Assembly (NCBI GenBank): GCA_902782645.1
Contig: CACZNV010000157.1
Span: 1 to 48,003 of the forward strand
Source: an uncultured Ruminococcus sp.
GTDB taxonomy: Bacteria; Bacillota; Clostridia; UBA1212
Direction of reading: 5' to 3'
Length of the DNA stretch: 48,003 nt
The notes under the pieces are model-generated. The model was not told where the DNA came from. It did no database searches and saw only the letters and a list, made by a program, of their open reading frames with translations. This document shows positions 3,604 to 48,003 of this stretch, one piece after another (positions within the stretch are counted from its first letter, which is position 1; every line of letters starts with the position of its first letter). The position numbers and the translations under genes are program-made.

Positions 3604-5838
3604 TTATTCTGATTTGGCGGCAATGAGATTGCCGACGGTTGTTCTCAGCCTGTTGAAGAGCTCCGTGTCAGTCTTGTAGCTTCCGAGCGAAACCGTGAGC
3701 TGCTTGATGATGAGGTCCGACGTGCCCTCGCCGTAGAGTTCGTCGAGGATGGTGAAGTAGTCGTAATCGTCAACGCCGTCCCTGATCGACTCAAGCCTCA
3801 GTGACCCGATAGGTCCCGGATAGCCGTCGCTTCCGTACTTTTCAATGTACTCGGGAAGTCCTCCGCCCTGATAGATGAGAACACCGTTGCCGTACGTGTC
3901 AACAACCGTTCCCGCAGCTGCATGCTCATACTTTTTGGTCCATTCTTTCGGGTCGCCCCAATCGTTGCACATGTAGTACAGGAACCCGTCAACATCATAG
4001 AGCTTCTGCTGCCAGAAAAGCAGTCTGTGCATGATGGATTCGTCGCTGATGGAGAGAGTGATCTCCGGGTTGTGGGGGAATCTTGTGATGTACCACCAGA
4101 CCTCGTCACCGTTTTCCTTGGCGGCTGCCATTCTGTCCTTGAACGTTCCGAACTTCTTCTCCATGCTCGTGCCGTAGAAGTTGGTGTAGAGCTTGCTGTT
4201 GTAGGCCTTGTCGACCTGCGTGTTAAAGAAGTATGTCTTACCGCACCAGGCGTTAACGTCATTTTCAAGATACTTGAAGTAGTCGGTGTTCGTGTTCAGG
4301 AGGGTGTTGTAGTGGATCGGAATAATCAGCTTGTGGTCGCCAAAGATATCCGTGTAGATGCTGTTGTAGTATATGATCTTGTCAAGAGCTGCCTTTGACA
4401 GCGGCTCGTCGCCCTCGTTCGGATAGAAATATGCCTTGTCGAGCCACTCCTGCTTCTGGGAAACCATGTCGTAGGCTGCCTGCACGTATGCCCTCAGGTA
4501 TGTCTCGTTCGACGTCGCCTCGGGATGCATCTTCCAGCAGAGCGTGAACGCGTTCATTCGCGGATCGTCAAGGTACTGCTTGACTCTCTGGTCCCAGAAC
4601 TGACCGCGCTTTGCATAGGGAAGCGTGTAGCAGTTGACCCTGTTCTCAAGGAGATATTCGTAGTAGAGAGCGTAGAGGTCGTCCTCAAGGCCGTCCTGTG
4701 TAGTGCCTTCTCTGTTGGCGCCAACGATGACAGCCCACTCATTAAGATCCGTCAGGGTCTTGCAGTTTGACGCCACGGGAAGCGTGAAGTTCCAGACGTA
4801 TGCGTACACATTGGCTTTTTTGATTTCGTTGCCGTTTTTGTCTTTTACCACAGCGGTTGCGGCATACTGGCCTGCAGGAGTATCAGCCTTTGATTTCACC
4901 TTGATGATGAACATGCTGCTCTTGTTTGCCTCCAGCGTGAATTCGTGCTCAAGCACCGGTATCGGGTCGGCAACAGTTTTACCCTCAACGCCGTCAAAGT
5001 ACCAGCCGTAGCAGATTTCCTTCTCCAGCACGTTGCCGTTATTATCCTTAAAATCGGAAATTTCGAGGGTCAGGTCCTCCATCCTGTTCTTTGAAGAAAG
5101 AAGCAGATGGCAGCCTTCGATCTCGTTCTTGGCGAGAAGTATCTGATATGAGTTCCTGCCGTTGGAGGTGATTTCCTCGGCGGGTGTGTTGTAGTAGGAG
5201 TGGTCAAACCAAAGAATCAGGTTTGCATCCTCGTGGGCCGCGGAAACAGGGTTGTTGGATATCTCCGGCACCGCATTCACCGCCGATTTCAGAAGGTTTG
5301 CCGCCCTGACCGAATCCTCGTAGGAGAGCTTGTTGGGGTCGTCTCCCCAATCGGTTATACCCTCAGGCACGGTGGGTGTCGGCGTAGGTGTGGGGGTCGG
5401 CGTCGCAGTGGGTGTGGGTGTAGGGGTTGCGGTGGGAGTCGCCGTGGGCGTTGCTGTGGGAGTCGGTGTGGCCGTTGGCGGCGGCGTGGGCGTTGGCGAC
5501 GGTGTCACCGATGCCTGTTCCGTCTGCTCCGGGGTTGCGGTTGCGGTGGCGGTCTCGGTCTCAGACGGGGTCTCCGTGGGGCTCACCGTCTCTGTGTTTG
5601 CAGGCTCAGCCGTTGAAGATGCGGTTTCCGTGGGTTCGCCGGCAGTCCGGGTGGGCGACTCTGTCTCAAGTGTCGGGCCGGGAACGTCCGTAGGTTCCGG
5701 AGTATTTGCAACTTCTGTCGCTTTTTCAGTCGGAGCGGCTGTGTTTTGTTTCGTATTGTCAGTCTCGCCGCAGGCGCAGGCCGCAACGAGAAGCGCTGTT
5801 ATCATAATCGCCAATAACAAAAACTTGATTTTTTTCAT
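3604..5838 (-). CDS. Surface lipoprotein with a long Pro/Thr-rich linker and a DUF4091 / GH123-like C-terminal region
   Basis: 744-aa ORF. It has a signal peptide with lipobox VAAC (Cys21). Residues about 25-157 are low-complexity T/P/E/A. Later motifs VWNFTLP and DGFLYYMCNDW resemble DUF4091-containing glycosidases. Confidence 0.6.
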   Translation of the reverse strand: MKKIKFLLLAIMITALLVAACACGETDNTKQNTAAPTEKATEVANTPEPTDVPGPTLETESPTRTAGEPTETASSTAEPANTETVSPTETPSETETATATATPEQTEQASVTPSPTPTPPPTATPTPTATPTATPTATPTPTPTATPTPTPTPTPTVPEGITDWGDDPNKLSYEDSVRAANLLKSAVNAVPEISNNPVSAAHEDANLILWFDHSYYNTPAEEITSNGRNSYQILLAKNEIEGCHLLLSSKNRMEDLTLEISDFKDNNGNVLEKEICYGWYFDGVEGKTVADPIPVLEHEFTLEANKSSMFIIKVKSKADTPAGQYAATAVVKDKNGNEIKKANVYAYVWNFTLPVASNCKTLTDLNEWAVIVGANREGTTQDGLEDDLYALYYEYLLENRVNCYTLPYAKRGQFWDQRVKQYLDDPRMNAFTLCWKMHPEATSNETYLRAYVQAAYDMVSQKQEWLDKAYFYPNEGDEPLSKAALDKIIYYNSIYTDIFGDHKLIIPIHYNTLLNTNTDYFKYLENDVNAWCGKTYFFNTQVDKAYNSKLYTNFYGTSMEKKFGTFKDRMAAAKENGDEVWWYITRFPHNPEITLSISDESIMHRLLFWQQKLYDVDGFLYYMCNDWGDPKEWTKKYEHAAAGTVVDTYGNGVLIYQGGGLPEYIEKYGSDGYPGPIGSLRLESIRDGVDDYDYFTILDELYGEGTSDLIIKQLTVSLGSYKTDTELFNRLRTTVGNLIAAKSE
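5368..5766 (-). repeat. Low-complexity Pro/Thr(Ala/Glu) linker-coding repeat, with strict TP/TATP repeats in 5368..5508
   Basis: It translates to ...TPSPTPTPPPTATPTPTATPTATPTATPTPTPTATPTPTPTPTPT. The DNA shows reiterated GGTGT/GGCGT units. Confidence 0.85.
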
Positions 5839-5906: not shown

Positions 5907-6821
5907 TTAAGATGCGAGTATTGCAAAAAGTTCGCGCATCAGGCTGTCCCTGTGTATAAAAGTGGCTCTCCTGATAGGATGCCTTCTTACGTCGTGGCTG
6001 TAATGGAAATCGTACTGCGGAATTGGCGACGGGACTACTTCGGTAAACATAAAGCGGTCGTTGTCGTTAAGAAGCCAGGCAACTGCCGTCACATCCCAGA
6101 TGATTCTGCTCCAGATCATGCCCTTGGCGTATTCGTCGGCAGCTTCGCAGGTGTGCTTCACCAGGTAGTCGCAGAGGGGATTTTTGCCCTCGAGCCAATA
6201 CTTCAGCTCCGGACCGCTTGTGTAGAAGGTCGAGGCAACGCCCATGCACGGAAGCTGGACGAAGGGGCACCCGCAGCCCATCACGACCCTCGCGGCGGCG
6301 ATATCCTGCATCATGTTGAATTCGTTTGTGTCGAACCACTGCTCGCTGTGGCCGCCAAGCCAAACAACCACTATATTTTCCTTAATTTCCGGCTTTTTGA
6401 TGAGTGCGGAAGCCACGTTTGTGATGGCGCCGATGGCAACCACGTAAAGGGGCTTTTCCGGGCTGTGCTCCATGGCAAGCCTTACCAGTTCATCCGCCGC
6501 GGGGCTCTCCACGGGGGTCTGCTCGTCCTTAAGATAAGTTCTCGAGCCCCTGAAAGTCATGTTTTTGAGCTCGCTCTTGCCCATGAGATCAAGCAGGTTG
6601 AGAATCTCGTTGTACGAGCGCTCCATGCCGTCCTCGGGAGATGTTGAGTTCGAGTTGAAGAACGGTGCGGCAAGCAGCGCTTTCACATTGCACTTGGGGT
6701 GCTTGACCATAAGCGAAAGCGCGAACTGATCGTCTATCTCGTTGTATGTATCCGTATCGAGAACGCAATCGACAACGCCTTGCGGCACGCTGAGATTCTT
6801 CATAAACTGTTCGTGAGTCAT
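5907..6821 (-). CDS. Nucleoside hydrolase (inosine/uridine-preferring IUNH family)
   Basis: 304-aa ORF. The N-terminal aspartate cluster VLDTDTYNEIDDQFAL matches the DxDxxxDD signature. AGGAG lies 6 nt upstream of the ATG. Confidence 0.85.
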   Translation of the reverse strand: MTHEQFMKNLSVPQGVVDCVLDTDTYNEIDDQFALSLMVKHPKCNVKALLAAPFFNSNSTSPEDGMERSYNEILNLLDLMGKSELKNMTFRGSRTYLKDEQTPVESPAADELVRLAMEHSPEKPLYVVAIGAITNVASALIKKPEIKENIVVVWLGGHSEQWFDTNEFNMMQDIAAARVVMGCGCPFVQLPCMGVASTFYTSGPELKYWLEGKNPLCDYLVKHTCEAADEYAKGMIWSRIIWDVTAVAWLLNDNDRFMFTEVVPSPIPQYDFHYSHDVRRHPIRRATFIHRDSLMRELFAILAS

Positions 6822-6930: not shown

Positions 6931-6979
6931 AGTCGGTGTCAAGTCGGTGTCATGTTTCGACGGAGAAGTGACACCGACT
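6931..6979. repeat. Three copies of the 11-mer AGTCGGTGTCA: two tandem direct copies and one inverted copy
   Basis: AGTCGGTGTCA occurs at 6931..6941 and 6942..6952. The inverted copy TGACACCGACT is at 6969..6979. The cluster lies between divergent promoters. Confidence 0.8.
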
Positions 6980-7072: not shown

Positions 7073-7642
7073 ATGAAAAATCTCAAGTCTATTATTCCAA
7101 TTATATTGGTTCTCCTTGCAGAGCTTGCGATCGGCATCACTCTTCTGATTTTCCCGACCCAGTTCACGCAGGGGATCCTTATCACCTTCGGCATCGTCCT
7201 AATAGTAGTTGCCCTGTTCCTCATCATCAAGTTCATCATTCTCAAGAAGAAGCAGGAAGAAGCAAGCATTATCCCCGTCATCATCGCAGTTGTTGCGCTG
7301 GCCGTGGGTATTTTCGCATCTTGCTTCAGCTGGTTCATCATGAGCACACTCGCCAAATTCGTCATGATTACATACGGTATAATCATGATTATAAGCGGTA
7401 TTCTCAAACTCAACTTTTACGTTGATGCGAAGCGCGAGGGATATATTTTCTCCACCTTCGTTATCATTTCATCGATTTTCACAATCGTTTTCGGTATTGT
7501 AATCTGCGTACTCGCATTCCTTCTCAGCGGAGTCTCAGTCGCCAAGATTCTTGCAATCACCGCAGGCATCGGTCTTATCGTTGAAGCCGCATTCGATATC
7601 TTCACCCTTGTGAAGACATTCATCGAGCACAAGAAAGCCTAA
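7073..7642 (+). CDS. Small polytopic membrane protein (DUF308/HdeD-like)
   Basis: 189-aa ORF made almost entirely of hydrophobic helices with repeated G-I-x-L-I motifs. GGAG lies 8 nt upstream. Confidence 0.5.
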   Translation: MKNLKSIIPIILVLLAELAIGITLLIFPTQFTQGILITFGIVLIVVALFLIIKFIILKKKQEEASIIPVIIAVVALAVGIFASCFSWFIMSTLAKFVMITYGIIMIISGILKLNFYVDAKREGYIFSTFVIISSIFTIVFGIVICVLAFLLSGVSVAKILAITAGIGLIVEAAFDIFTLVKTFIEHKKA

Positions 7643-23094: not shown

Positions 23095-24141
23095 CTAAGC
23101 CGCCGACAGCACAATCCCGCAGTTTTCTGTTATCTTTATCATCACCTCCCGGTCCTTAATTCCCTTCTCGCATTCGCCCTTAACTTCTTCTCCGTCAACG
23201 GCAATCCCGTTCAGAGAAAAATCCTCAAGCAGCATTCTTCCGTCCCCCGTGATTACAAGTCTTGCGTGTCTCCTGCTGGCAAACAGGCTGGGCACACGGA
23301 TATCTGCCCAATCGCCGTCCCGTCCTATTCTCAGGCAAGTTTTCTTATCTCCTGCCACGCTTCTCTCCATCTCAAGAGGCTCAACATCGCCAATACCTCT
23401 GACATGAAGCACAAGTTGCTTCGGTTTTTCACATTCTGAGGGCTTCAGCCCTTTCGACTTAAAAAAGCCCAACAGCTTGTCTTTCAATGTTACATCCGTC
23501 GTCAGCCCTTCGATTCTTTCTATGAGTCTTTCAAGGTCCTCCGCCGTCTCTTCCGGGTTCTCCTCGGATCTTATTCTCCTCACGTCATCCCGCAAGAGTT
23601 CATAATCCGACGCAGGAACACTTTCAACGTCGATGTTAAGAAAAATAATCTTGACAAGGTCATTTACGGTCGTCCTCTCCTGCACATTTTTCAGTCCGGG
23701 CATGTAAAGAAACTTGTAATCGGACTCAACGTTCCTCACAATAACCGCATTGTAGTCATACACAAACTCCCTTGCATCGACCCCGTGTTCCTTTGCACAC
23801 GCCAAGAGCTTCCGCAGGCATGAGGCGATTCCTCTCAGCATTCTCAGTCCGGGCACATCGTCTCCGAACACCGTTTCTTTCAGTGTAGCTCTGCCCCTTA
23901 ACGTACATGTGTAGCCGTCAGGCGTGACGGTGGCAGGGAGTATTTCAGCCTGGTCGCAGTCGTTCAGAAACTCCTTTTCCTGCAGCGCCCTCTTGTAGCT
24001 AATGTAGCACCCTTCTCCTATAAGCCTCAAGGCCGTGGAAGACCTGTCGCTGCTGATCATGATGCAGTTGCCCTGTTCTTTAAGAGCCGTCTCTCCGAAG
24101 CGCTCCCCAATATTCTTTTCTTCAGAGAAACCGTTTACCAA
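23095..24141 (-). CDS. FHA-domain protein with an unassigned N-terminal region of about 250 aa (last gene of the Tad-like operon)
   Basis: 348-aa ORF with a TTG start and GAGGGGG 10 nt upstream. It overlaps the flp stop codon. The C-terminus LRIGRDGDWADIRVPSLFASRRHARLVITGDGRMLLEDFSLNGIAVDG is a canonical FHA core (G-R...S-R-x-H...N-G). Confidence 0.8.
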   Translation of the reverse strand: MVNGFSEEKNIGERFGETALKEQGNCIMISSDRSSTALRLIGEGCYISYKRALQEKEFLNDCDQAEILPATVTPDGYTCTLRGRATLKETVFGDDVPGLRMLRGIASCLRKLLACAKEHGVDAREFVYDYNAVIVRNVESDYKFLYMPGLKNVQERTTVNDLVKIIFLNIDVESVPASDYELLRDDVRRIRSEENPEETAEDLERLIERIEGLTTDVTLKDKLLGFFKSKGLKPSECEKPKQLVLHVRGIGDVEPLEMERSVAGDKKTCLRIGRDGDWADIRVPSLFASRRHARLVITGDGRMLLEDFSLNGIAVDGEEVKGECEKGIKDREVMIKITENCGIVLSAA

Positions 24142-24371
24142 TCCGTAAATACCCCCTCGGTCTTTGACTCAATGTTCTCAAACATATTGTTTGCGTATCT
24201 TGTGATGAATGTTTTGAACAGAAGCGCCAATGCGACAAGCACAGCCACAAGAAGCACTATTTCAACAGTGCCAAGCCCATTGGCGTCGTCCCTAAAACGG
24301 CAAAGTCTCTGTCTCAAAGACAGTGCACAGCCGCAAACGGTTTTACTGATTTTCATTGTTAATGATTTCAA
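24135..24371 (-). CDS. flp: Flp-family type IVb/IVc pilin precursor
   Basis: 78-aa ORF. The segment GLGTVEIVLLVAVLVALALLF matches the Flp processing/hydrophobic motif (G/xxxxE followed by a hydrophobic helix). TTG start with GGGGAGGGG 6 nt upstream. Confidence 0.65.
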   Translation of the reverse strand: MKSLTMKISKTVCGCALSLRQRLCRFRDDANGLGTVEIVLLVAVLVALALLFKTFITRYANNMFENIESKTEGVFTDW

Positions 24372-24428
24372 ATTCTACCCCTCCCCGGTGTTTATTATTT
24401 TATAGGCGATAAGCCGAAATTATCAAAT

Positions 24429-25157
24429 TCAAGAGGAAAACAGCCTGATCATTGCCGGCGCCGCAGTCAGGACAAGCACCGCAATAAGGACCATCACTGA
24501 GGGAATCACCATCAGTGTTGACGCCTCATCCGCCATCTGTTTTGAAATGGCCTTGCGCTCCTCTCTTTGGTTGGCGGCATGCATTCTGAGCAGCGGCGCA
24601 AGTTCATCCGCTCCTTTTCTCGAGTTCTGGATCACCAGCGACACAAACGTACTCACCTGGGCGTCGCCGCACCTTTTTGCAAGGTTTTCCATTGCCGTCT
24701 CGGGCTCGTAATAGTAGCCCGACTGGGTTGCAAAATCGCTGACCGTGTGTCTCAGCTCATCGCCAAGGGCTCCGTCCCGCTCTTTCATATAGCCGCTCAC
24801 AGTCACTATTGCGCTCCAGATTGGAACACCTGCATCCACAAGCACTGCAAGACGCTCGAGAAGGTCCGCAAGACCAAGCCTCAGCTTTCTTGTTTTTTTC
24901 TTTGCCTTGTCGTTTATCCCGTGTTCGGACATCACGGTCAGGATGACCGGCACGCCTGCGCCAAGCCCCGCCGCCTCACCAAGACTGAGTCCGAAAACCA
25001 TGCCGGTCGCAAACGTCAGCGCCCCGAAGACCGGAAGCATCCTGAAAAGCGTTTTCCTCTCCTTTTTCTTTTTTTCAAAGGCCTCTCCGTAGATGAACTT
25101 AAGCTTCCTGTTCATCGATTCATTGTACGAAGCCAGCGCCGAAAACCGAATCGCCAA
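24429..25157 (-). CDS. tadC: TadC-like type II secretion system F-family membrane protein
   Basis: 242-aa ORF with a T2SSF-like helical domain flanked by TM segments. Its position is downstream of tadB. TTG start preceded by a G7 tract. Confidence 0.72.
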   Translation of the reverse strand: MAIRFSALASYNESMNRKLKFIYGEAFEKKKKERKTLFRMLPVFGALTFATGMVFGLSLGEAAGLGAGVPVILTVMSEHGINDKAKKKTRKLRLGLADLLERLAVLVDAGVPIWSAIVTVSGYMKERDGALGDELRHTVSDFATQSGYYYEPETAMENLAKRCGDAQVSTFVSLVIQNSRKGADELAPLLRMHAANQREERKAISKQMADEASTLMVIPSVMVLIAVLVLTAAPAMIRLFSS

Positions 25158-25205
25158 CGGTCTCCCCCCCTCTCATAAACCACCAAACCCCTTGATTGTT
25201 GATCT

Positions 25206-25997
25206 TCATATCTCTATATTGCAAAGCTTGCTCCCGAGTATCCAGGCCCCGCCGATGAGCACCATTGCCCCTATTGAGATAAAAAGCCCGGCGCTGCTGC
25301 CGTACAAGGTGTCCATGTAACCCTTTGACATGCTTTTTACAAGAAGGACCAGCGCAAAAGGCATAACGGTAATGATTCTGAGGTTGTATCTTGGCAATGC
25401 AAGCGAGCCTGCAATCTCCGCATCCGTCTCAAATTTGATGCGTATGTTTGAAAGCGCATTTCTTATCACATAGGCCATGTTTCCTCCGCGAATACCGACA
25501 ATCGACATGGCTTTTACGCAGCTTATGATGTCCTCGCTCCCGGTCTTTCCGGCAAACTCAAGAAGCTCATCGTAAAAGTGGTAAAGCATCCCCGTCTTTC
25601 TGCACACTGCATCAAGCTCCGGAGCGATATGCGCGATTTTCAGCGAACTCCCGTTCCGGCAGTCACCGCACACCGACTCGAAGGCCTGCTCCACAGAATT
25701 TCCGGCAGTCACCGCCGCAAGAACCAGCTGCATCGCCTCAAGAAACTCTCTCTCAATCTTTCTCTTTCTTTTTGCCCTGAGTGAGATCAGGAAGCTTCTC
25801 ATGAAAAAAGGAAATGCCAATGCTGCAACCACAACCGACACATAGATATTGTTCGAAAGTATGAATGCGCCGGCTGTCACTGCGGCAAAGAACGCAAGCC
25901 CTGCGGCGGCGGGAATGACCGGATTCACGGCATACATTCCCTCCCCGCGGATAAAAAACTTTCCGAACAGATTCTTAAATCCCGCAGATTTTTTCAT
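25206..25997 (-). CDS. tadB: TadB-like type II secretion system F-family membrane protein
   Basis: T2SSF-like ORF. I favour the ATG at 25997 (GGAGGAG 10 nt upstream), which overlaps the tadA 3' end. The ORF track start is 26018. Confidence 0.72.
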   Translation of the reverse strand: MKKSAGFKNLFGKFFIRGEGMYAVNPVIPAAAGLAFFAAVTAGAFILSNNIYVSVVVAALAFPFFMRSFLISLRAKRKRKIEREFLEAMQLVLAAVTAGNSVEQAFESVCGDCRNGSSLKIAHIAPELDAVCRKTGMLYHFYDELLEFAGKTGSEDIISCVKAMSIVGIRGGNMAYVIRNALSNIRIKFETDAEIAGSLALPRYNLRIITVMPFALVLLVKSMSKGYMDTLYGSSAGLFISIGAMVLIGGAWILGSKLCNIEI

Positions 25998-27150
25998 AGA
26001 TTCTTGTCTCCTCCGCAAGCTCTCCTGTCTTCAATCCGTTTTTGTACAAAGTCTTAAGCGCCACCTTCCCGTCCTCCATTCCGGACACGTAGCATATTTC
26101 CGAGACAAAACGTTTCATATCGCTGTTCCGCTGCATGTGAACAACCAGATCAAGGCCCGAAGCTATCTGCTTTCTAATCGCTTCACTGTTGATATTTCCC
26201 TCCCAGAGAGCCATAGTCTCAAGCCTGGTTATAATATCTCTGGCGCTGTTACCGTGGGCCGTTGACATGCTCCCGTCGTGTCCCGTGCACATTGCCTGCA
26301 GCATATCCACCGCCGCAGAGTCTCTGACCTCGCCGACAATAATTCTGTCCGGTCTCATTCTCAAGGCGGTCTTTATAAGGGTTCTCATGCTCACGCCTCC
26401 CGCGCCGCCGGGTCCGGGCTCCCTGGTTTCAAGCCTCACAAGGTTGGGAGGCGAAAGTCTCAGCTCCGCGGAGTCCTCAACCGTGACAATGCGTTCGCTG
26501 TCAGGAATGAATTTACAGAGAACATTGAGGAAGGTAGTTTTGCCGCTCGAAGTGCCGCCGGACACGAATATATTAACCTTGGCTTTGACGCACCGGGCAA
26601 GAAACCCGGCCTCCTCGGCAGAAAGACTTCCAAGCCGCACCAGCTCTTCCATAACAAACGACTTGTCCGGAAACTTCCTTATCGTCACTATCGGCCCGTT
26701 TATCGCCACCGGCTTCAAAACCACGTTAACCCTGGAACCGTCCGAAAGCCTCGCATCCACGACAGGCGAACTCTCATTAACAGTCCTGTCAACCCATGAA
26801 ACCATCGACTGAATCACATTAAGCAGCACACCCGCATCGGAGAATCTTTTGTCATATCTCTCGATTTTTCCGTTCTTTTCGATGTAAATATTCTCCGTGC
26901 CGTTGATCATGATCTCGTTCACCTCCGGATCGTCCAGCAGCGGCTGCAGGATTCCAAGCTTACGGTGGGACGAAAAAACCGTCTCCGCAATCTCTTTCTT
27001 CTCCTCATCGCCAATGCCCGTCTTCCCCGCAAGTTCCTCAACACACTCAAGTGTCAGCTCCCTGAACTCCCGGTCGGAATACGCCCCGCCCGGCGCCAGT
27101 TTTTTCTTCAGCGATTTCTCCACATAGTCAACATAAAAACGGTTAACCAA
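25975..27150 (-). CDS. tadA: CpaF/TadA-family pilus assembly ATPase (T2SS E / VirB11-like)
   Basis: 391-aa ORF with Walker A GGTSSGKTT, the VTVEDSAEL Asp box, the RPDRIIVGEVR Walker B region and a His box TGHDGSMSTAH. TTG start with GGAGGG 10 nt upstream. Confidence 0.9.
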   Translation of the reverse strand: MVNRFYVDYVEKSLKKKLAPGGAYSDREFRELTLECVEELAGKTGIGDEEKKEIAETVFSSHRKLGILQPLLDDPEVNEIMINGTENIYIEKNGKIERYDKRFSDAGVLLNVIQSMVSWVDRTVNESSPVVDARLSDGSRVNVVLKPVAINGPIVTIRKFPDKSFVMEELVRLGSLSAEEAGFLARCVKAKVNIFVSGGTSSGKTTFLNVLCKFIPDSERIVTVEDSAELRLSPPNLVRLETREPGPGGAGGVSMRTLIKTALRMRPDRIIVGEVRDSAAVDMLQAMCTGHDGSMSTAHGNSARDIITRLETMALWEGNINSEAIRKQIASGLDLVVHMQRNSDMKRFVSEICYVSGMEDGKVALKTLYKNGLKTGELAEETRIYEKICGI

Positions 27151-27230
27151 ATCGGCAATTCCCTCCTTCCGTCACTGTTCTCTGCGGGAAAATGATAACA
27201 TGCGGGAGGGGGTTTTGATAGTCTGCACCG

Positions 27231-27310
27231 TACGACAAGTTTCGACGGTTTTCGACAAGTTTCGACGGTTTTCGACAAGTTTCGACGGCTTTCGACAGGT
27301 TTCGACAAAG
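27231..27310. repeat. Array of eight 10-bp units with a TTCGAC core (7 perfect copies plus 1 TACGAC), equal to 3.5 copies of the 20-bp unit TTCGACGGTTTTCGACAAGT
   Basis: The units are tacgacaagt, ttcgacggtt, ttcgacaagt, ttcgacggtt, ttcgacaagt, ttcgacggct, ttcgacaggt and ttcgacaaag. Cores start at 27231, 27241, ... 27301, an exact 10-bp register. Confidence 0.95.
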
Positions 27311-27321
27311 GCCGGCGGCAC

Positions 27322-27350
27322 TTGAAAAAACGGAGGGGTGAGAATATAAT
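27322..27350 (+). promoter_or_regulatory. Near-consensus promoter, TTGAAA-17-TATAAT
   Basis: TTGAAA at 27322..27327, a 17-nt spacer, then TATAAT at 27345..27350. It lies about 50 nt upstream of the GH78-like ATG and 16 bp downstream of the last TTCGAC unit. Confidence 0.75.
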
Positions 27351-27401
27351 TGCGGGGCGGATGAGGCCGCAGCGAGAATTGGCGATAAGGAGTCTTTCAG
27401 G

Positions 27402-29588
27402 ATGACACAGAAGGAAATGTTCGGTAAAGCGATTTGGGTTGAGCCCGCGGAGAAGACAGGTTTCCCTATTTTGAGGCGCGTTTTCAGAATTGGCGGCTTT
27501 GACAGGGTGACGCTGAGGGTCGCGGGGCTTGGCTTTTTCCACGCCTACATTAACGGGCGGGAGGTCAACGACAGCGCATTTTTGCCCCTTAACAGTGATT
27601 TTGAGGAGAGGAAGGACTATCCCGTTGGCGAGAAGCTTTTCGGACACAGGCTTATCGTGCCGGAGTTTGACATTACGGAAGCCGTCAGAGAGGGGGAAAA
27701 CCTGCTGGCGGTTCATTTTGGCGGCGGCTGGTACACTTTTCAGGCGGGGCCCTTCGGCGACGCCAAGGCAATCTACCTGATCACCGTCGAAAAAGGCGGC
27801 AGGACGGAGACGTTCTGTTCGGGGCCGGAGGACAGGTTTGCGGAGAGCTATGTTGGCGAGTACTGCTTTACCTTCCTGGAGAGCCACGACTACACGGATT
27901 TTGACGACAGAGTTCTTTCGGACCCTGCATGGGATAAAAAGACCGTTGAGGCAAAAGCCGCAAAGCCCCTTGAGACCGAGTACGTTTTTTCGGACTGCCC
28001 CGGGGACAAAGTGACCGAGGTGATAACGCCAAAGGTTATAAACGTGTGCGAAAAGGACGGCGCGAAGTGCACGGTGTACGATGCGGAGAAGAATATCTCG
28101 GCGATACCGGTTGTGAAAATTCTCGCAAAAAAAGGAGAAAAAGTTACCTTGGCGTTTTCGGAGGAGAAGACTCCGGACAATATGATCGACCCAAGGTTTA
28201 TGCACAGGCAGACCTTCACCGCGGTATCTGACGGAAAGGCCCGGACAATATCGCCAAGGTTCACATGGTTTGCCTTCAGGTTCATCGAGGTGTGCGGCGA
28301 CGCGGAAGTTGAAAGCGTGGGATTTGTGCATGCGGACATTGGCGTGTCATCCACTTTTGACTCGGACTGCGAGGCCCTCAACTGGCTCTACAAGGCGTAC
28401 ATCAACACCCAGCTCAGCAATATGCATGCAGGCATTCCTTCCGACTGTCCCCACATTGAACGAAGGGGCTATACGGGCGACGGCCAGCTCACCTGCAAGG
28501 CTGCTATGACCGTGCTTGACGCGAAAAAGTTTTACAGGAAGTGGATTGACGACATTTCGGACTGCCAGGACGTGTTGACGGGTCACATTCAGTACACTGC
28601 GCCTTATATAAGGAGCGGCGGCGGGCCCGGTGCCTGGGGCTGCGCAATCGTCGAGGTGCCTTACATTTTCTACAAAGAGTACGGCGACATCGAACCCGCC
28701 AAGAAGCTCTACCCCCAGATGCTCAGGTATTTCGACTACCTCGAGGAGCACTCGCTGAACGACATTGTGGTCAGCGACAAGGAAGGCGAGTGGTGCCTTG
28801 GCGACTGGTGCACTCTCACCCCCACAGCCCTTCCGGCAGGATTTGTGAACAACTACTATTACATAAAGTCAATGAGGCGGGCCATCGAAACCGCCAAGCT
28901 CATCGGCAGGGAGAGCGACATTCCGGCTCTTTCGGAGAAGATTGACGCAAGGCTTAAAGCCACCAAGGCGGCCTACTACAACACCTGGGACCACAATTTT
29001 CTCGCCAACATTCAAGGCGCCAATGCATTTGCCCTCGACATGGGGCTTGGCGATGACGCCACGAAACAGTTCCTCGTTAGCTACTACACTAAACTCAGGC
29101 AGTTTGACACGGGTATCTGCGGCACGGACGTGGTCACAAAGGTGCTTTTTGACATCGGTCAGGGTGATGTTGCCGTGGATTTGCTGCTTGGCGACAGGAC
29201 TTTCGCAGGCTGGATGAAAGCAGGCTTCACAACCCTCAGTGAGTACTGGCTGAACTCCACAAGGGACCGCTCCCACAGCCACCCGATGTTCGGCTCCCCC
29301 GTCACATATTTCTTTGAGAGACTCCTCGGCATCACCCAGGAAAAGGATTCTGCGGGCTACGAAAAGCTCGTGATTGCGCCATTCATTCCTTCCCAATCAA
29401 ACCGCCTCTCCGGTTCCAGGGAGCTTCCCTGCGGCAAGGTTTCCGCAAGCTACGAAAGAGACGCCAAGGTCACGAGCCTCATTCACGCCAAGGTCACCCT
29501 CCCTGCCGGCAAAACCGCAAGGTTCCTGCATAACGGAGTTGAAAAGACTCTGACGGAAGGCAAAAACGAGTTTGACTTTAATGTCTGA
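27402..29588 (+). CDS. GH78-like alpha-L-rhamnosidase family protein (second, divergent paralogue), no signal peptide
   Basis: 728-aa ORF. The motif IPSDCPHIERRGYTGDGQL resembles the DCPQRDERLGWTGD signature. AAGGAG RBS. Confidence 0.75.
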   Translation: MTQKEMFGKAIWVEPAEKTGFPILRRVFRIGGFDRVTLRVAGLGFFHAYINGREVNDSAFLPLNSDFEERKDYPVGEKLFGHRLIVPEFDITEAVREGENLLAVHFGGGWYTFQAGPFGDAKAIYLITVEKGGRTETFCSGPEDRFAESYVGEYCFTFLESHDYTDFDDRVLSDPAWDKKTVEAKAAKPLETEYVFSDCPGDKVTEVITPKVINVCEKDGAKCTVYDAEKNISAIPVVKILAKKGEKVTLAFSEEKTPDNMIDPRFMHRQTFTAVSDGKARTISPRFTWFAFRFIEVCGDAEVESVGFVHADIGVSSTFDSDCEALNWLYKAYINTQLSNMHAGIPSDCPHIERRGYTGDGQLTCKAAMTVLDAKKFYRKWIDDISDCQDVLTGHIQYTAPYIRSGGGPGAWGCAIVEVPYIFYKEYGDIEPAKKLYPQMLRYFDYLEEHSLNDIVVSDKEGEWCLGDWCTLTPTALPAGFVNNYYYIKSMRRAIETAKLIGRESDIPALSEKIDARLKATKAAYYNTWDHNFLANIQGANAFALDMGLGDDATKQFLVSYYTKLRQFDTGICGTDVVTKVLFDIGQGDVAVDLLLGDRTFAGWMKAGFTTLSEYWLNSTRDRSHSHPMFGSPVTYFFERLLGITQEKDSAGYEKLVIAPFIPSQSNRLSGSRELPCGKVSASYERDAKVTSLIHAKVTLPAGKTARFLHNGVEKTLTEGKNEFDFNV

Positions 29589-29605
29589 AAGTGTCTAAAT
29601 GTGAT

Positions 29606-29654
29606 AAACGGTTCTTGGAACAGCTTAATTCGTTAATCTGTCCAGGAACCGTTT
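29606..29654. terminator. Long imperfect hairpin between convergent genes (candidate bidirectional terminator)
   Basis: Roughly 17-bp stem AAACGGTTCTTGGAACAG / CTGTCCAGGAACCGTTT (one bulge, one G-U) with a 14-nt loop. Only a weak T tract follows it. Confidence 0.55.
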
Positions 29655-29677
29655 ATTTCACTTCATTCCGGTAGAGG

Positions 29678-30253
29678 TCACACGTCAAAGAATATTTTAT
29701 CCACTATTTCGGAGTTGATTTTTAAGAGAAGTGGTGTGCAATCCTCGAATTCTATCTTTGAATCATTCTCTGGGGCTATAAACTCGCTTATAACTTCAAA
29801 ACCGTTATCTTTATACAGCTGATAACCCTCACGATTTGCATTTAGAAAAATAGCTTTAAACCCGATTGTTCTTGTTGACATGGAATACAGCTCCTGCAAA
29901 AGTGTTTTGAATAGTATGTTGCTCCACTCAATAGTATGATCATGGTTTTTTCTTAACTGCCGTGCAATAGCAAAGAGTCTTATTTCTGCACACGATAAAT
30001 ACTCATTACGACCACCATTATCAAACAATAGCCCTAAAGCATTTATTGATGCAAATCCATATATTCGACTTATAGCATTATTCTTTGCTTCGTCAGCATC
30101 AACAAAAACATAGGTTACGCTTTCGCCTGAAGCATTCCAATCTTTTGCTTTTTCCGACAAAAAAACATTGAAAGCGGGATTTCCACAATCAAACTCTTTT
30201 ATGACTGCATCGTCCACGCTTTCAATGTTTCTTAATTCAAAGGATGTCTTCAT
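29678..30253 (-). CDS. GNAT-fold acetyltransferase of the AtaT/TacT/KacT toxin type (candidate toxin)
   Basis: 191-aa ORF in an AT-rich islet. Its N-terminal motif KEFDCGNPAFNVFL parallels RFDCGEEALNLFL of E. coli AtaT as I recall it. It has a C-terminal YQLYKDNGFE GNAT motif. The canonical Q/RxxGxG loop is not evident. Confidence 0.55.
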   Translation of the reverse strand: MKTSFELRNIESVDDAVIKEFDCGNPAFNVFLSEKAKDWNASGESVTYVFVDADEAKNNAISRIYGFASINALGLLFDNGGRNEYLSCAEIRLFAIARQLRKNHDHTIEWSNILFKTLLQELYSMSTRTIGFKAIFLNANREGYQLYKDNGFEVISEFIAPENDSKIEFEDCTPLLLKINSEIVDKIFFDV

Positions 30254-30411
30254 TTTTCAAAAAGCTTATCCAATTCCTTCTTATCCACCTTTGCAGAGGC
30301 ACCTTTTTTTACATCTTCCCAAAACTCTTTGTTCTTGCCCGATGAATTCAGGAACTGAACAAATCTCTTGCTCTTTTTCGGATCTATAATTACCGAACTT
30401 CTTTGAATCAT
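30250..30411 (-). CDS. 53-aa basic protein, candidate cognate antitoxin/partner (no recognisable family)
   Basis: ATG at 30411 with GGAGG 7 nt upstream. There is a 4-bp ATGA overlap with the GNAT start. The longer 85-aa ORF would begin inside the -35 box. Confidence 0.45.
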   Translation of the reverse strand: MIQRSSVIIDPKKSKRFVQFLNSSGKNKEFWEDVKKGASAKVDKKELDKLFEK

Positions 30412-30478
30412 ATTGGAACCTCCTTTCAAAGTATTTTGTCGGTTGTTTTTCTCTGTCGGCGAGAACACACCATGATTC

Positions 30479-30507
30479 TTTATATCGGAAATGTTCGCAG
30501 TTGTCAA
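30479..30507 (-). promoter_or_regulatory. Promoter of the two-gene GNAT cassette, TTGACA-17-TATAAA
   Basis: The minus strand reads TTGACAactgcgaacatttccgaTATAAA. The -35 is at 30502..30507 and the -10 at 30479..30484. Confidence 0.7.
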
Positions 30508-30592
30508 GATTCTTTTGGAACTTTTTCCCCTTCAATAGACAAATTGCGTTGTATCAATACGGCTGCAGCAGATTTCTCGATTTTTGGACTAT

Positions 30593-30612
30593 TCACCAAC
30601 TGACGCTCCAGC
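30593..30612. repeat. 20-bp direct repeat, copy A (TCACCAACTGACGCTCCAGC)
   Basis: Identical to 30772..30791, which is the stop codon plus the last six codons (RWSVSW*) of the downstream oxidoreductase gene. Confidence 0.9.
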
Positions 30613-30771
30613 AATCATGATTTTTGAGCTATTTTTGCGTGCGCGACCCCGAAGATGTATGTATATACTTCGAGAGGGGAGCTCGCGCAAAGCAAGTCGC
30701 GAGCAATCGTCGCAAGACTCCTTGTTCTGTTTAATTTTCTCTCCGCGACTTGCGTAAAGAGCCAAAAATCA
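30613..30771. mobile_element. 159-bp non-coding MITE-like insertion with imperfect terminal inverted repeats and internal hairpins
   Basis: The left end is ATGATTTTTGAGCTATTTTTGCG.... The reverse complement of the right end is TGATTTTTGGCTCTTTACGCAAGTCGCG.... Internal stems are GCTCGCG/CGCGAGC and CCCCGAAG...CTTCG.GGGG. It is flanked by the 20-bp direct repeat. The right end recurs at 41..74. Confidence 0.45.
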
Positions 30772-30791
30772 TCACCAACTGACGCTCCAGC
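30772..30791. repeat. 20-bp direct repeat, copy B (overlaps the 3' end of the oxidoreductase CDS)
   Basis: Identical to 30593..30612. Confidence 0.9.
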
Positions 30792-31956
30792 GTTTGATGT
30801 AGGTGTATTTTTCGGTTTCGGAGGCGGGCGCGTTTTTGCGCTCCGTCTCAGCCGCTTTCTTTTCGTTAAGAAGCCTGTCAAACTCAGCCATATTCTCCTC
30901 CGAAAGCGGGAGGGCAATCTGCTTTCCGGTCCAGGATGAGAGGAAGGCGGCGTTGGTGATTGAGAGTTCTTTTATGCCTTCAACGCCGGGGGCGATGAGA
31001 GGTGTGCCGCTGAGAACAGCTGATGCGAAATCTTCGAGTATAAGCTCGTGGCCATCCCGCGGATTGTCGGATTTATAGACAAATTCATTGGCGGCCGGAG
31101 TGCTTGCGGCACCCTTTTCGGTGAAGCAGAACTCCCGCTCGGGGACCTGCAGCTTTGTGTAGCGGAGCTCGTTTTTCTCAAGAATCAGTCTGCCCCTGTC
31201 GCCTGAGATTTCAAGGCGGTTTGTGCCGGGAGCCTCGCCTGTGGTGGTTATGAACACCGCAGATGCGCCGTTATCGTACTCCGCGTATATTGTGGCGTCG
31301 TCCTCAACGCCAATGTTGTGGTAGAGTCCCTCGCGGCAGAAAGCAGTGACCTTTGAGGGCATGCCGAAGAGCCATTGCCAGATGTCTATGTTGTGCGGAG
31401 CCTGGTTTATGAGGACGCCGCCGCCCTCGCCGTTCCAGGTGGCCCGCCAGCTGCCCGAGTCGTAGTAGCTTTGGGTTCGGTACCAGTTGGTGACTATCCA
31501 GACAAGCCTCTTGGGGATGCCTATGCCGCCCTCTGAAATGATTTCCTTGGCTTTTTGGAACAGAGGGTCTGTGCGCTGGTTGAACATGATTCCGAAAACA
31601 CAGCCGCTTTTTGACGCTGCGCCGTTCATCTTTACAACCTCGGAGACATTTACCCCCGCAGGCTTTTCCGTGAGCACGTGAACGCCGTTTTCAAGGGCCG
31701 AAATCACGTAATGAGGGTGGAAATAGTGGGGAGTTGCCACAATCACGGCATCCGCAAGGCCGCTCCTTATGAGCTCGTCGCCGTCTTCGAATATTTTGAT
31801 TTCCGGGAAATCATTGGCGAGTTTGCGCCTCTTCTCACCGTCAATGTCGCACAGAGCTGCAAGGGTCATGCCCTTGATCCTGCCGTTTTTGATGCATGAG
31901 CAGTGGGCAAAACCTATATTTCCTACGCCGATAATTCCAACCCGAATGCTTTTCAT
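30772..31956 (-). CDS. Gfo/Idh/MocA-family NAD(P)-dependent oxidoreductase
   Basis: 394-aa ORF with the N-terminal IRVGIIGVGNIG Rossmann motif and a family-typical EKP motif (LTEKPAG). Confidence 0.9.
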   Translation of the reverse strand: MKSIRVGIIGVGNIGFAHCSCIKNGRIKGMTLAALCDIDGEKRRKLANDFPEIKIFEDGDELIRSGLADAVIVATPHYFHPHYVISALENGVHVLTEKPAGVNVSEVVKMNGAASKSGCVFGIMFNQRTDPLFQKAKEIISEGGIGIPKRLVWIVTNWYRTQSYYDSGSWRATWNGEGGGVLINQAPHNIDIWQWLFGMPSKVTAFCREGLYHNIGVEDDATIYAEYDNGASAVFITTTGEAPGTNRLEISGDRGRLILEKNELRYTKLQVPEREFCFTEKGAASTPAANEFVYKSDNPRDGHELILEDFASAVLSGTPLIAPGVEGIKELSITNAAFLSSWTGKQIALPLSEENMAEFDRLLNEKKAAETERKNAPASETEKYTYIKRWSVSW

Positions 31957-31968
31957 GTCAAATCCCGA

Positions 31969-33138
31969 TTATTTTCCTGTGTTGTAAGTGCCTGAGAGAT
32001 CCGCAACGGCACCGCCAATGTCTTCCTTGCGCCTTGATGTGGCAACCCTCTTCATAAGCTCGTTGTAGTAAAGGTCAGCGTCGAAAGGAATCTCCACGGT
32101 CTTGCCAAGCCATGCGGAAAGGTGCATTGCGTTGGAGATGGTCAGTCCGTTGATGCCCTCTTCGCCGCCTGCGATGAGCGGTTCGTCCCTGAGAATCGCC
32201 GCCGCAAAAGCGTTGAGAACGCCGGAGTGCTGGGGCGAAAGGCCGTCCGTTTCAACCTCTATAGTTGTGCTCTTGGGCTGGGCGAAGGATACCTTGTTGG
32301 TTCTGCTGAATTCGGGTTCAAACATTTCAAGCTCCGTCATGTAGAGTTTGCCGTTTTCCGCAAGGAGCTTGCCTCCCTCGAGAGTAATCTCAAAGCGGTT
32401 CGTGCCGGGGGCATCGCCCGTTGTGGTTATGAAGCAGCCCGTGGCGCCGTTCTCGTACTCCACAAAAGCGGTGACATCATCTTCAACTTCGATGTCGTGC
32501 CACTTGCCGAAGTACATGTGTGCAGTGACCGTTTTGGGCATGCCGCAGATCCACTGCCAGAGGTCAAGGTTGTGAGGGCACTGGTTGAGCAAAACTCCGC
32601 CGCCCTCGCCGCTCCATGTGGCTCTCCATGCGCCCGAATCGTAATATGCCTGGGGCCTGTACCAGTTGGTGATGATCCAGTTGGTCCTTTTGATCTGACC
32701 GAGTTTGCCGCTCTTTACGATTTCCCGCATTTTACGGTAAACACAGTCGGTTCTCTGGTTGAACATCATGCCGAATTTTGCCTTGCTGGTCTTGGCGAAT
32801 TCGTTCATCTCGGCAACAGCCTTGGTGTAGACGCCGGCAGGTTTTTCACACATGACGTGGATATTTCTCTTGAGGCACTCGATGACATATTTGGGGTGCG
32901 AATAGTGGGGCACGGCAATGATGCAGGCGTCAATCAGCCCGGAGTCAAACATCTCCTCGGCGTTCGTGAAGCAGGCCGGCGCTTCTTTCATGAAGCCCTT
33001 AGCCCAGTCCAGCCTGTCCTGTTTGAGGTCGCAGACCGCCGTCACCCGAATTTCGGGGCAGCGTCCGCCCTCGATATTGGCAATGTGTCCGCTTCCCATG
33101 TTGCCGACACCGAGTATACCCATTCTTACATAATCCAT
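31969..33138 (-). CDS. Gfo/Idh/MocA-family NAD(P)-dependent oxidoreductase (paralogue)
   Basis: I set the start at the ATG at 33138 (MDYVRMGILGVGNMG), preceded by GGAGGAG. It has a CEKPAG motif. The 13-codon upstream extension is made of the repeated leader motif. Confidence 0.9.
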   Translation of the reverse strand: MDYVRMGILGVGNMGSGHIANIEGGRCPEIRVTAVCDLKQDRLDWAKGFMKEAPACFTNAEEMFDSGLIDACIIAVPHYSHPKYVIECLKRNIHVMCEKPAGVYTKAVAEMNEFAKTSKAKFGMMFNQRTDCVYRKMREIVKSGKLGQIKRTNWIITNWYRPQAYYDSGAWRATWSGEGGGVLLNQCPHNLDLWQWICGMPKTVTAHMYFGKWHDIEVEDDVTAFVEYENGATGCFITTTGDAPGTNRFEITLEGGKLLAENGKLYMTELEMFEPEFSRTNKVSFAQPKSTTIEVETDGLSPQHSGVLNAFAAAILRDEPLIAGGEEGINGLTISNAMHLSAWLGKTVEIPFDADLYYNELMKRVATSRRKEDIGGAVADLSGTYNTGK

Positions 33139-46756: not shown

Positions 46757-47662
46757 TTATTCAACTGCCGCCAATATACTCAGGTATTCGTCCAGTCTCT
46801 CGCTGACATATCCGGCAATCAGATCCGTCATTGCACCTGCGTCGCCTTGGCGGTAATACGCGTCAAAAGCGTCGTAGTACTTCTTCCGGTCCGTGAACTT
46901 TACGTTTATTGGCGGAAAACCGGCGCGAATCAGTTCCAGGTTCATTATCAGACGCCCGGTTCGACCGTTGCCGTCAATAAAAGGATGAATTCCCTCAAAT
47001 TCCAGATGGAAACGGGCAATGCGCTCGATGGGATTCATGCTTTCTCTGCGCTCCTCGTTGACCGTCAGCAGCTCGCTGATTTTTGGCTCAATCATATACG
47101 GCTGCACCGGCTGCGTATAAGCACCCATAATGCGGACAGGAATCCTGCGAAAAACGCCTTTATCCTCCGGCCGATCCATCAAAACCAGTGCATGAATACT
47201 CTTTATAACAGACTCGCTGAGGGGGTACTCCCGGCTTGCGATATCCTCTATATACATGAACGCATCCCTGTGCCCAACCGCCTCCAGATGATCCTTCAAG
47301 GGCTTTTGACCTACGGTTAACCCTTCCAGCACCATCGCCGTCTCTTTAAGGGTAAGCGTGTTGCCTTCAATGGCATTGGAGTTGTATGTGAATTCAACCG
47401 TGAACTCTTCTTGCAGCAGTTTGACTTCTCCGGGTGTCAGCGGCCGCATTTTGCTTAGGCGCTCCCGTTTTGCTTCAATCTCGCCAAGGAAACCTGCACG
47501 TGTTTTTCGCCCGTCAAGAGGCTTCGCCGCGTTTTCCGGAATCATGTACAGACTGCCCTTCCTTATAACGCCCGGTATCTTGCCTTCCTCGCAAAGGGCC
47601 CTGACCCTGCGTGTTGAAATGCCCCATTTTTCCGCTGCCTGCGTAACTTTAATATATTCCAT
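46757..47662 (-). CDS. Fic-family protein with an N-terminal excisionase/MerR-like HTH
   Basis: 301-aa ORF with the Fic motif HPFIDGNGRTGR and the upstream inhibitory-helix motif SNAIEG ((S/T)xxxE(G/N)). The N-terminus IKVTQAAEKWGISTRRVRALCEEGKIPG is HTH-like. GGAGGA RBS. Confidence 0.9.
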   Translation of the reverse strand: MEYIKVTQAAEKWGISTRRVRALCEEGKIPGVIRKGSLYMIPENAAKPLDGRKTRAGFLGEIEAKRERLSKMRPLTPGEVKLLQEEFTVEFTYNSNAIEGNTLTLKETAMVLEGLTVGQKPLKDHLEAVGHRDAFMYIEDIASREYPLSESVIKSIHALVLMDRPEDKGVFRRIPVRIMGAYTQPVQPYMIEPKISELLTVNEERRESMNPIERIARFHLEFEGIHPFIDGNGRTGRLIMNLELIRAGFPPINVKFTDRKKYYDAFDAYYRQGDAGAMTDLIAGYVSERLDEYLSILAAVE

Positions 47663-47699
47663 TCAGGAGTTCCTCCTTCCATAGAAGCATACGTTACGT

Positions 47700-47728
47700 A
47701 TAATATTGCAAAATCGGAATAAAGTCAA
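47700..47728 (-). promoter_or_regulatory. Fic promoter, TTGACT-17-TATTAT, with a TTATTCCGA repeat in the spacer
   Basis: The minus strand reads TTGACTttattccgattttgcaaTATTAT. Confidence 0.65.
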
Positions 47729-47784
47729 TGATATTTGCTGATTTGTTTCAGTTTTTATTCCGATTATTAATATTTTCGGAATAA
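47714..47784. repeat. Three copies of the 9-mer TCGGAATAA: 47714..47722 and 47776..47784 direct, 47755..47763 inverted
   Basis: Read directly from the sequence. The inverted and last direct copies form a 9-bp stem with a 12-nt AT loop. Confidence 0.85.
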
Positions 47785-47805
47785 TTGCGTGCCGGTGAGG
47801 CAAAA

Positions 47806-47898
47806 ATTTCAATTGCCTAATGTTTGAATTCAATTGCCCATTTTTGAGTAATAATTAGGCAATTGAAATAAAAAATAAAGAGCGCGACGGCAATTGAT
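47806..47898. repeat. Four copies of TCAATTGCC / GGCAATTGA (two direct, two inverted), including a perfect 16-bp inverted repeat ATTTCAATTGCCTAAT
   Basis: TTCAATTGCC occurs at 47808..47817 and 47829..47838. GGCAATTGA occurs at 47858..47866 and 47889..47897. The 16-mer at 47806..47821 equals the reverse complement of 47854..47869. Confidence 0.85.
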
Positions 47899-47917
47899 AA
47901 CAACATCACGCTCTCTA

Positions 47918-47993
47918 TGGCGCCCACTGTAGGACTCGAACCTACGACCCTGCGGTTAACAGCCGCATGCTCTACCGATTGAGCTAAGTGGGC
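47918..47993 (-). tRNA. tRNA-Asn (anticodon GUU), CCA encoded
   Basis: The reverse complement is GCCCACTTAGCTCAATCGGTAGAGCATGCGGCTGTTAACCGCAGGGTCGTAGGTTCGAGTCCTACAGTGGGCGCCA. Acceptor stem GCCCACT/AGTGGGC, anticodon loop CTGTTAA. Confidence 0.93.
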
Positions 47994-48003
47994 ATATTCT
48001 TAA

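Follow-up and report, generated by a model that had tools for sequence, protein, structure and literature searches.

Spo0A is the response regulator that controls entry into sporulation in Firmicutes, and to our knowledge no Spo0A target with more than a handful of boxes has been described. The footprinted Spo0A sites consist of two boxes with 3 bp between them, which gives a 10-bp period, and Spo0A~P works as a dimer (PMC2731898). Base-specific contacts are made to G2, C4 and G5 of the box, A or T often adjoins the core, and the 0A-box specificity is common to Bacillus and Clostridioides (PMC3485338). In B. subtilis, four sites are found at spo0A, and the six consensus boxes of phage phi29 are spread over its genome (PMC2731898; bioRxiv 10.1101/2025.01.21.634141). 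Occupied boxes attract each other at B. subtilis spo0A, with an apparent cooperativity of 4 (bioRxiv 10.1101/2025.01.21.634141), and Spo0A sites that lie upstream of the -35 accompany positive control (PMC4168254).

Here we compare with these systems an array of short repeats in a DNA stretch of 48,003 nucleotides from an uncultured Ruminococcus sp. (hereafter the window; ERZ28613750 scaffold_850), which corresponds to the final 48 kb of the source contig, ERZ1024259 scaffold_161. By direct reading, the eight hexamers in exact 10-bp register described in the earlier note are all present: TACGAC starts at 27231 and is followed by seven TTCGAC at 27241, 27251 and so on to 27301, with spacers that alternate between AAGT and GGTT and degrade to GGCT, AGGT and AAAG at the 3′ end. 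The array occupies 27231..27307 when the base after each hexamer is counted, and ends at 27306 when the hexamers alone are taken. Tandem Repeats Finder reports a period of 10 with 7.5 copies and a period of 20 with 3.7 copies, at 96% match. Read on the opposite strand, TTCGACA becomes TGTCGAA, the consensus 0A box of Spo0A. On the minus strand, which codes for tadA, the array units from distal to proximal are TTTGTCGAAA CCTGTCGAAA GCCGTCGAAA CTTGTCGAAA ACCGTCGAAA CTTGTCGAAA ACCGTCGAAA CTTGTCGTAC, and the boxes within them are TGTCGAA, TGTCGAA, CGTCGAA, TGTCGAA, CGTCGAA, TGTCGAA, CGTCGAA and TGTCGTA, that is, four perfect TGTCGAA, three CGTCGAA and one TGTCGTA, all with the same 5′ to 3′ orientation as tadA. 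Each 20-bp super-unit combines one strong box with one weaker box, and the boxes are direct repeats separated by 3 bp, an arrangement that would suit one dimer per pair. The boxes that deviate from the consensus (C for T at position 1 in 3 of the 8, and TGTCGTA as the proximal box) count against the match. The earlier note knew of no factor with an iterated TTCGAC-N4 site; this has to be corrected, because TGTCGAA is the 0A box that Spo0A binds, with paired boxes 3 bp apart (PMC2731898). We consider it likely, judging from the sequence, that the array is a row of Spo0A-binding 0A boxes, placed head to tail every 10 bp, that regulates the tadA-tadB-tadC-flp-FHA pilus operon.

The array is the only run of three or more boxes in the window (TGNCGAA with at most one mismatch, in 10-bp phase). 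Of 200 first-order Markov shuffles, 193 reached a run of 2 at most, 4 reached a run of 3 and 3 had no run, and no second phased box run was found across about 85 kb of the source contig. It had also been proposed that the array is non-coding and that every site lies on one face of the helix, and our analysis supports both statements; the antisense ORF at 27108-28331, on the strand opposite to the GH78 gene that it overlaps, is taken as spurious. We rejected a CRISPR or an RNA element, since the period is 10 bp (the earlier note had likewise excluded CRISPR) and a scan of 26800-27600 with E up to 1 matched no Rfam family. The 10-mer GTTTCGACGG does occur a second time at 6954-6963, as had been noticed, where it is a lone box within an unrelated direct-plus-inverted repeat (AGTCGGTGTCA) that holds no phased array. 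The repeat, at 6931-6979, has two direct copies of AGTCGGTGTCA followed by the inverted copy TGACACCGACT, with the single CGTCGAA-type box in the loop, and sits between a nucleoside hydrolase gene (5907-6821, minus strand) and a DUF308 gene (7073-7642, plus strand). It looks like an operator or a hairpin that is unrelated to the phased array.

The operon downstream of the array, on the minus strand, starts with a gene for a tadA/cpaF-type secretion ATPase (25975..27150; PF00437, 197 bits); its product scores 291 bits against TIGR03819, which is under the cut-off, and its relatives carry the name CpaF family protein. This gene is followed by genes for a tadB-like (25206..26018) and a tadC-like (24429..25157) T2SSF membrane protein, both assigned by domain matches, a Flp-type pilin of 78 aa (24135..24371; Flp1_like, PF16982, a precomputed Pfam match) and, as the final gene, a protein with a C-terminal FHA domain (23095..24141; domain match). 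No regulator gene was found in the tad operon or adjoining it. As the earlier note stated, 81 bp separate the array from the TTG codon (27150) at which the T2SSE/CpaF-type ATPase gene starts, and a ribosome-binding site GGAGGG (27161..27166, minus strand) lies 9 nt ahead of this codon. Between them, the sequence suggests a putative extended -10 element of the operon promoter, TGTTATCAT (27192..27200, minus strand), and direct reading and comparison among lineages define a gap of 33 bp between the proximal box and the -10 hexamer (27198..27230, minus strand), in which the window has no good -35 (TATCAA there). On the other side of the array, the plus strand carries the near-consensus sigma-70 promoter that had been pointed out for the GH78 gene, TTGAAA-17-TATAAT at 27322..27350, with 11 of 12 matches, and the GH78 alpha-L-rhamnosidase gene itself (27402..29588; domain match).

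The rest of the window holds chromosomal housekeeping and sugar metabolism genes, including recA, recX, rnc, plsX, pgsA, comEA and uxuA. A TetR-family gene (95-703, plus strand) adjoins a second GH78-like gene, which is more divergent (733-2832, minus strand; Bac_rhamnosid6H, 64 bits). G+C-rich tandem repeats with periods of 6, 12, 18, 24, 36 and 42 are located at 5372-5559 within an ORF of 744 aa (3604-5838, minus strand) that has no Pfam or NCBIfam match, and they probably encode a repetitive low-complexity protein segment. At the right end, each assembly that carries the Fic gene (46757-47662) stops about 400 bp past it (47663-48003 in the window), which suggests a repeat or a strain-variable junction.

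To our scan for arrays in other genomes we added a metagenome search with the TadA protein, followed by exact-protein look-ups, which yielded further loci orthologous to that in the window. A contig of a rumen MAG labelled Mageeibacillus sp. UBA1243 (L068) is syntenic with window positions 23462-32310 at 78-83% nucleotide identity. Together these loci represent three lineages, in all of which the array lies at the same site upstream of tadA. The first, with 8 units, comprises the window and L129, two independent assemblies in which the array is identical; the second, with 12 units, comprises eight independent assemblies (L068, L121, L137 and L145-L149); and the third is a single assembly, L122, with about 23 units in two blocks. 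TadA is 91% identical to that of the window in L121 and 74% identical in L122. The copy number of 12 is equal in all eight assemblies of the second lineage, the sole difference being two bases within the degenerate twelfth unit. Across lineages the box cores are preserved and the spacers have diverged, and it is thus the core, not the spacer, that selection has kept. It is also evident that the gap of 33 bp to the -10 is constant in every lineage, although its sequence is divergent between lineages except for CGGTGCA beside the last box. The extended -10 form TGnTATCAT is kept in all eight assemblies of the second lineage (by direct reading in L068) and in L122, the promoter itself being inferred.

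The GH78 promoter is conserved as well, but the sister species has about 126 bp more between it and the array; beside the array of L122, no GH78 match was found. The array had been described as lying in a shared control region of the divergent tad and GH78 genes. We assign it instead to the tad operon, because the tadA -10 always follows the array after 33 bp, the GH78 promoter stands at varying distances from it and L122 has no GH78 neighbour. In the window, the distal end of the array is 15 bp from the GH78 -35, which is not so in the sister species, and a local effect of the array on the GH78 promoter in the window is possible, though not a conserved one. In a more distant tad operon (L123, TadA 51% identical), no more than two perfect boxes are present, spaced by 10 bp at 996-1012; these have the opposite orientation and lie about 150 bp upstream of tadA.

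To describe the motif, we pooled 43 units from the three lineages and calculated an information profile over the 10-bp unit. Positions 1 and 2 have no preferred base (0.17 and 0.12 bits), and position 3 (T/C) has 0.70 bits. The following positions have 1.57 bits (position 4, G; box G2), 0.72 bits (position 5, T/A; box N), 2.0 bits (position 6, C; box C4), 2.0 bits (position 7, G; box G5), 1.68 bits (position 8, A), 1.84 bits (position 9, A) and 0.63 bits (position 10, A/T). The pooled units thus read as TGNCGAA plus a free 3-bp spacer, the core of the 0A box, with the contacted G2, C4 and G5 among the best-conserved positions and N among the least constrained positions of the core. In L122 all four bases occur at N: TGTCGAA and TGACGAA boxes alternate, with TGCCGAA and TGGCGAA present too.

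A scan for (TTCGACN4)x4 in one genome per species gave at least 120 loci. Among the loci listed, heterogeneous arrays with A/T-rich spacers are almost only from Clostridia MAGs; four heterogeneous-spacer arrays among them are from unclassified, Sphaerochaetaceae and Lentzea records. In 15 Clostridia arrays, the first base of the box, which the search pattern leaves unspecified, is T in 48 of 69 units, and the spacers are 85% A/T. One of these arrays (L099) lies directly upstream of spo0A (TIGR02875, 274 bits vs a cut-off of 200). Other Clostridia arrays lie upstream of one soj/parA gene, two noc/parB-like genes and one gene for a soluble orphan histidine kinase, and at all of these loci the boxes are co-oriented with the downstream gene, as at tadA. 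The sporulation gene table of Galperin and colleagues (Table S2) includes ParA and ParB/YyaA among those regulated by Spo0A. Moreover, pairs of boxes spaced by 10 bp were found in three more spo0A upstream regions, of which the pair in L144 is perfect, that in L173 has one imperfect box and that in L141 has two degenerate boxes.

In a Ruminococcus MAG (L098, 5058-5154), ten boxes, nine of them perfect TGTCGAA, lie upstream of a histidine-phosphatase-family gene, and an unclassified MAG (L018, 2198-2334) has 14 boxes at a contig end. Matches from outside the Firmicutes were set aside as different, namely a dispersed decamer repeat of Gemmatimonadales and uniform 10-mer microsatellites in cyanobacteria, Bacteroidota and other phyla. 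In two Gemmatimonadales MAGs, TTCGACC(G/A)(T/C)C decamer arrays are scattered by the dozen over both strands, and several cyanobacterial and Bacteroidota loci are pure TTCGAC-N4 microsatellites ending in GCTCAG. In addition, 3-5 TGTCGAA boxes stand in 10-bp phase on each of 23 IMG/VR viral contigs (L150-L172); about half of the contigs have a G+C content of 26-35%, many have heterogeneous spacers, and five (L159, L160, L168, L170 and L172) have one common box arrangement. By analogy with phi29, the boxes on the viral contigs may be phage sensors of the host Spo0A.

Whether the host encodes Spo0A bears directly on this reading. We found no spo0A in about 85 kb of the source contig (a leftward walk to about position 16 kb), and of the best 120 among at least 8000 Spo0A homologues none could be traced to this genome or to the MAG accession ranges of its relatives. 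A SpoIIP-domain gene is present on the source contig (PF07454, 84.7 bits, cut-off 24.4), with 70.6 bits against TIGR02867, under its trusted cut-off of 123. The gene (L138, 4715-8305; about 30-34 kb of scaffold_161, outside the window) encodes a protein of 560 aa directly upstream of lepA-hemN, and the order spoIIP-lepA-hemN is that of Bacillus. It is preceded by a gene for a CotH-domain protein of 624 aa; CotH domains are found outside spore formers too. A divergent parA and a small ParB_N gene adjoin the SpoIIP and CotH genes, and there is no 0A-box array at that place. The ftsZ-spoIIGA-sigE-sigG synteny is absent, and the dcw cluster on the source contig breaks after murE. The closest relatives named at NCBI are labelled Mageeibacillus sp., a loose label. 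M. indolicus has a reduced genome of 1.8 Mb, is listed without spo0A and has no SpoIID, SpoIIM or SpoIIP; in the set of Galperin, Spo0A is present in all spore formers and in 32 of 42 asporogenous Clostridia. The SpoIIP- and CotH-domain genes argue that sporulation genes are retained in this organism, which thus appears to differ from M. indolicus and probably has kept Spo0A.

Given these results, we considered what else could account for the array. An undescribed protein, for example a lineage-specific response regulator, might bind the 10-bp direct repeats, with the likeness to the 0A box being coincidental. Many response regulators do bind phased direct repeats, no spo0A was seen in this lineage along the contig and the named relative in the genus lacks it; however, the match comprises the whole seven-base box with its free N and its contacted G2, C4 and G5, as well as the A/T flank and the 3-bp spacer, and there is no candidate regulator gene in or beside the operon. 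Arrays of the same type are spread over many Clostridia families, in one case directly ahead of spo0A, and such a regulator would therefore need a widely conserved specificity, so we regard this explanation as unlikely. The array might also act by the shape of DNA only, its phased A/T tracts forming a curved, UP-element-like segment that stimulates one or both of the divergent promoters, as the earlier note had suggested. By a rough wedge model with approximate parameters, the array of the window is indeed among the most curved 0.2% of 90-bp segments (end-to-end over contour 0.83, median 0.98), a moderate curvature, but the orthologous arrays are predicted to be far less curved (0.92, 0.95 and 0.89) and a true A5N5 control reaches 0.54. 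What is strictly conserved is G-N-C-G-A-A rather than an A-tract, L122 often having only AA, and the array keeps its position to the tadA -10 but not to the GH78 -35. Curvature was thus rejected as the selected feature because it is not conserved, and an effect of shape only appears quite improbable.

Replication slippage might alternatively have generated a neutral or contingency VNTR with no sequence-specific function. This would fit the three exact 20-bp copies (96% match), which point to recent tandem duplication, the copy numbers of 8, 12 and about 23 in different species, and the plain microsatellites that TTCGAC-containing 10-mers form in many phyla. Copy number does not vary between strains, though, being constant in eight assemblies of one species and two of another, and the array is kept at the same site where TadA is only 74% identical, with diverged spacers, preserved cores and an exact register to the -10. 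The case that the earlier note had named as its refutation, a strain-specific VNTR absent from relatives, thus fails in the metagenome search, and a neutral VNTR is highly improbable. The repeats might finally be iterons or centromere-like repeats of a plasmid, a phage or a partition system, since phased direct repeats also make up iterons and type Ib/II centromeres and some of the Clostridia arrays adjoin parA/parB-like genes. Against this, the context is chromosomal and housekeeping (recA, recX, rnc, plsX, pgsA, dcw), synteny persists from one species to the next, the array adjoins no rep, par or phage gene, and no array accompanies the parA and ParB_N pair of the source contig. We rejected iterons and centromeres on this context and consider them extremely unlikely.

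We therefore return to a row of 0A boxes bound by Spo0A as the preferred reading, in which the cooperative, filament-like binding of a regulator that the earlier note had offered as one of its two suggestions is the best account of the array. The identity of the binding protein as Spo0A is deduced from the boxes, and activation rather than repression from the position of the array. On this reading, a Spo0A~P dimer would fill each 20-bp unit, made of a consensus box and a weaker box, as at abrB, and the dimers would bind cooperatively along one face of the helix, cooperative binding along the row being likely by comparison and binding to so long a row an extrapolation. Occupancy would then spread as far as the proximal box, a weak one at roughly -52 to -46, which sits 33 bp from a putative extended -10 promoter without a usable -35. 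There, bound Spo0A could aid RNA polymerase, so that expression of the pilus would follow the level of Spo0A~P, that is, stationary phase or the beginning of sporulation. The sensitivity or the threshold of the response might be set by how many units a species has (8, 12 or about 23), and the array might grow by tandem duplication of the 20-bp unit and then be held by selection. A bolder version, which we put forward only tentatively and think doubtful as a whole, is that Spo0A~P makes long head-to-tail nucleoprotein filaments on dedicated arrays of 8 to about 23 exactly phased boxes, whose length would be an evolvable threshold dial for the Tad/Flp pilus and adhesion. The dial may be changed by duplicating the 20-bp dimer unit, and its output in rumen Clostridia may be unrelated to sporulation. 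As a variant, the lineage may have lost spo0A and another protein may have taken over the 0A-box arrays.

Similar to the 0A boxes of B. subtilis abrB, spoIIG and spo0A and of phages phi29 and Nf, the array has the TGNCGAA core, the 3-bp spacer and the 10-bp period. It also resembles the classical Spo0A targets in the pairing of a strong with a weaker box, in the location of the sites upstream of a promoter with a poor -35 and, as far as can be supposed for the array, in the cooperativity between occupied boxes that is known for those targets. The classical targets have about 1-4 footprinted sites, whereas here 8 to about 23 boxes stand in one exactly phased row; they also differ in that the present target is a Tad/Flp pilus operon and the host an uncultured rumen Clostridia lineage. 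The boxes of the presumably autoregulatory spo0A genes of Clostridia (L099, L144, L173 and L141) are likewise tandem, of the TGTCGAA type, spaced by 10 bp and co-oriented with the gene, and they end some tens of bp before a -10-like element, but these upstream regions have 2-5 boxes in comparison with 8 to about 23 in the tad arrays. Regulators of the OmpR/PhoB type bind as head-to-tail dimers to direct repeats of about one helical turn upstream of activator-dependent promoters. PhoB boxes and the WalR site TGTWAH-N5-TGTWAH have an 11-bp period and different cores, and TGNCGAA with a period of 10 bp fits Spo0A instead. Plasmid iterons and the ParR/ParG centromeres, which are coated by protein filaments, also consist of many phased direct repeats; unlike those, the array has a different motif, no adjacent replication or partition gene and a syntenic location in the chromosome. 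A literature search, with most subscription journals outside its coverage, gave, among the papers listed, none relevant that links Spo0A with Tad/Flp, and nothing relevant on long tandem 0A-box arrays. The type of site and the geometry of the pairs match those of the classical Spo0A targets, and what differs is the scale of the array, the Tad/Flp target and the host lineage.

If this reading is true, a Tad/Flp adhesion pilus of rumen Clostridia that are abundant and uncultured would be directly linked with the master regulator of sporulation. The promoter would also represent a design new for Spo0A, a long and exactly phased row whose length differs by species, and would thereby offer a natural test system for the relationship between the number of cooperative sites and the response threshold, and for the polymerisation of Spo0A along DNA. 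Furthermore, four or more phased TGNCGAA boxes would serve as a simple signature by which Spo0A targets could be predicted in uncultured Firmicutes and their phages.
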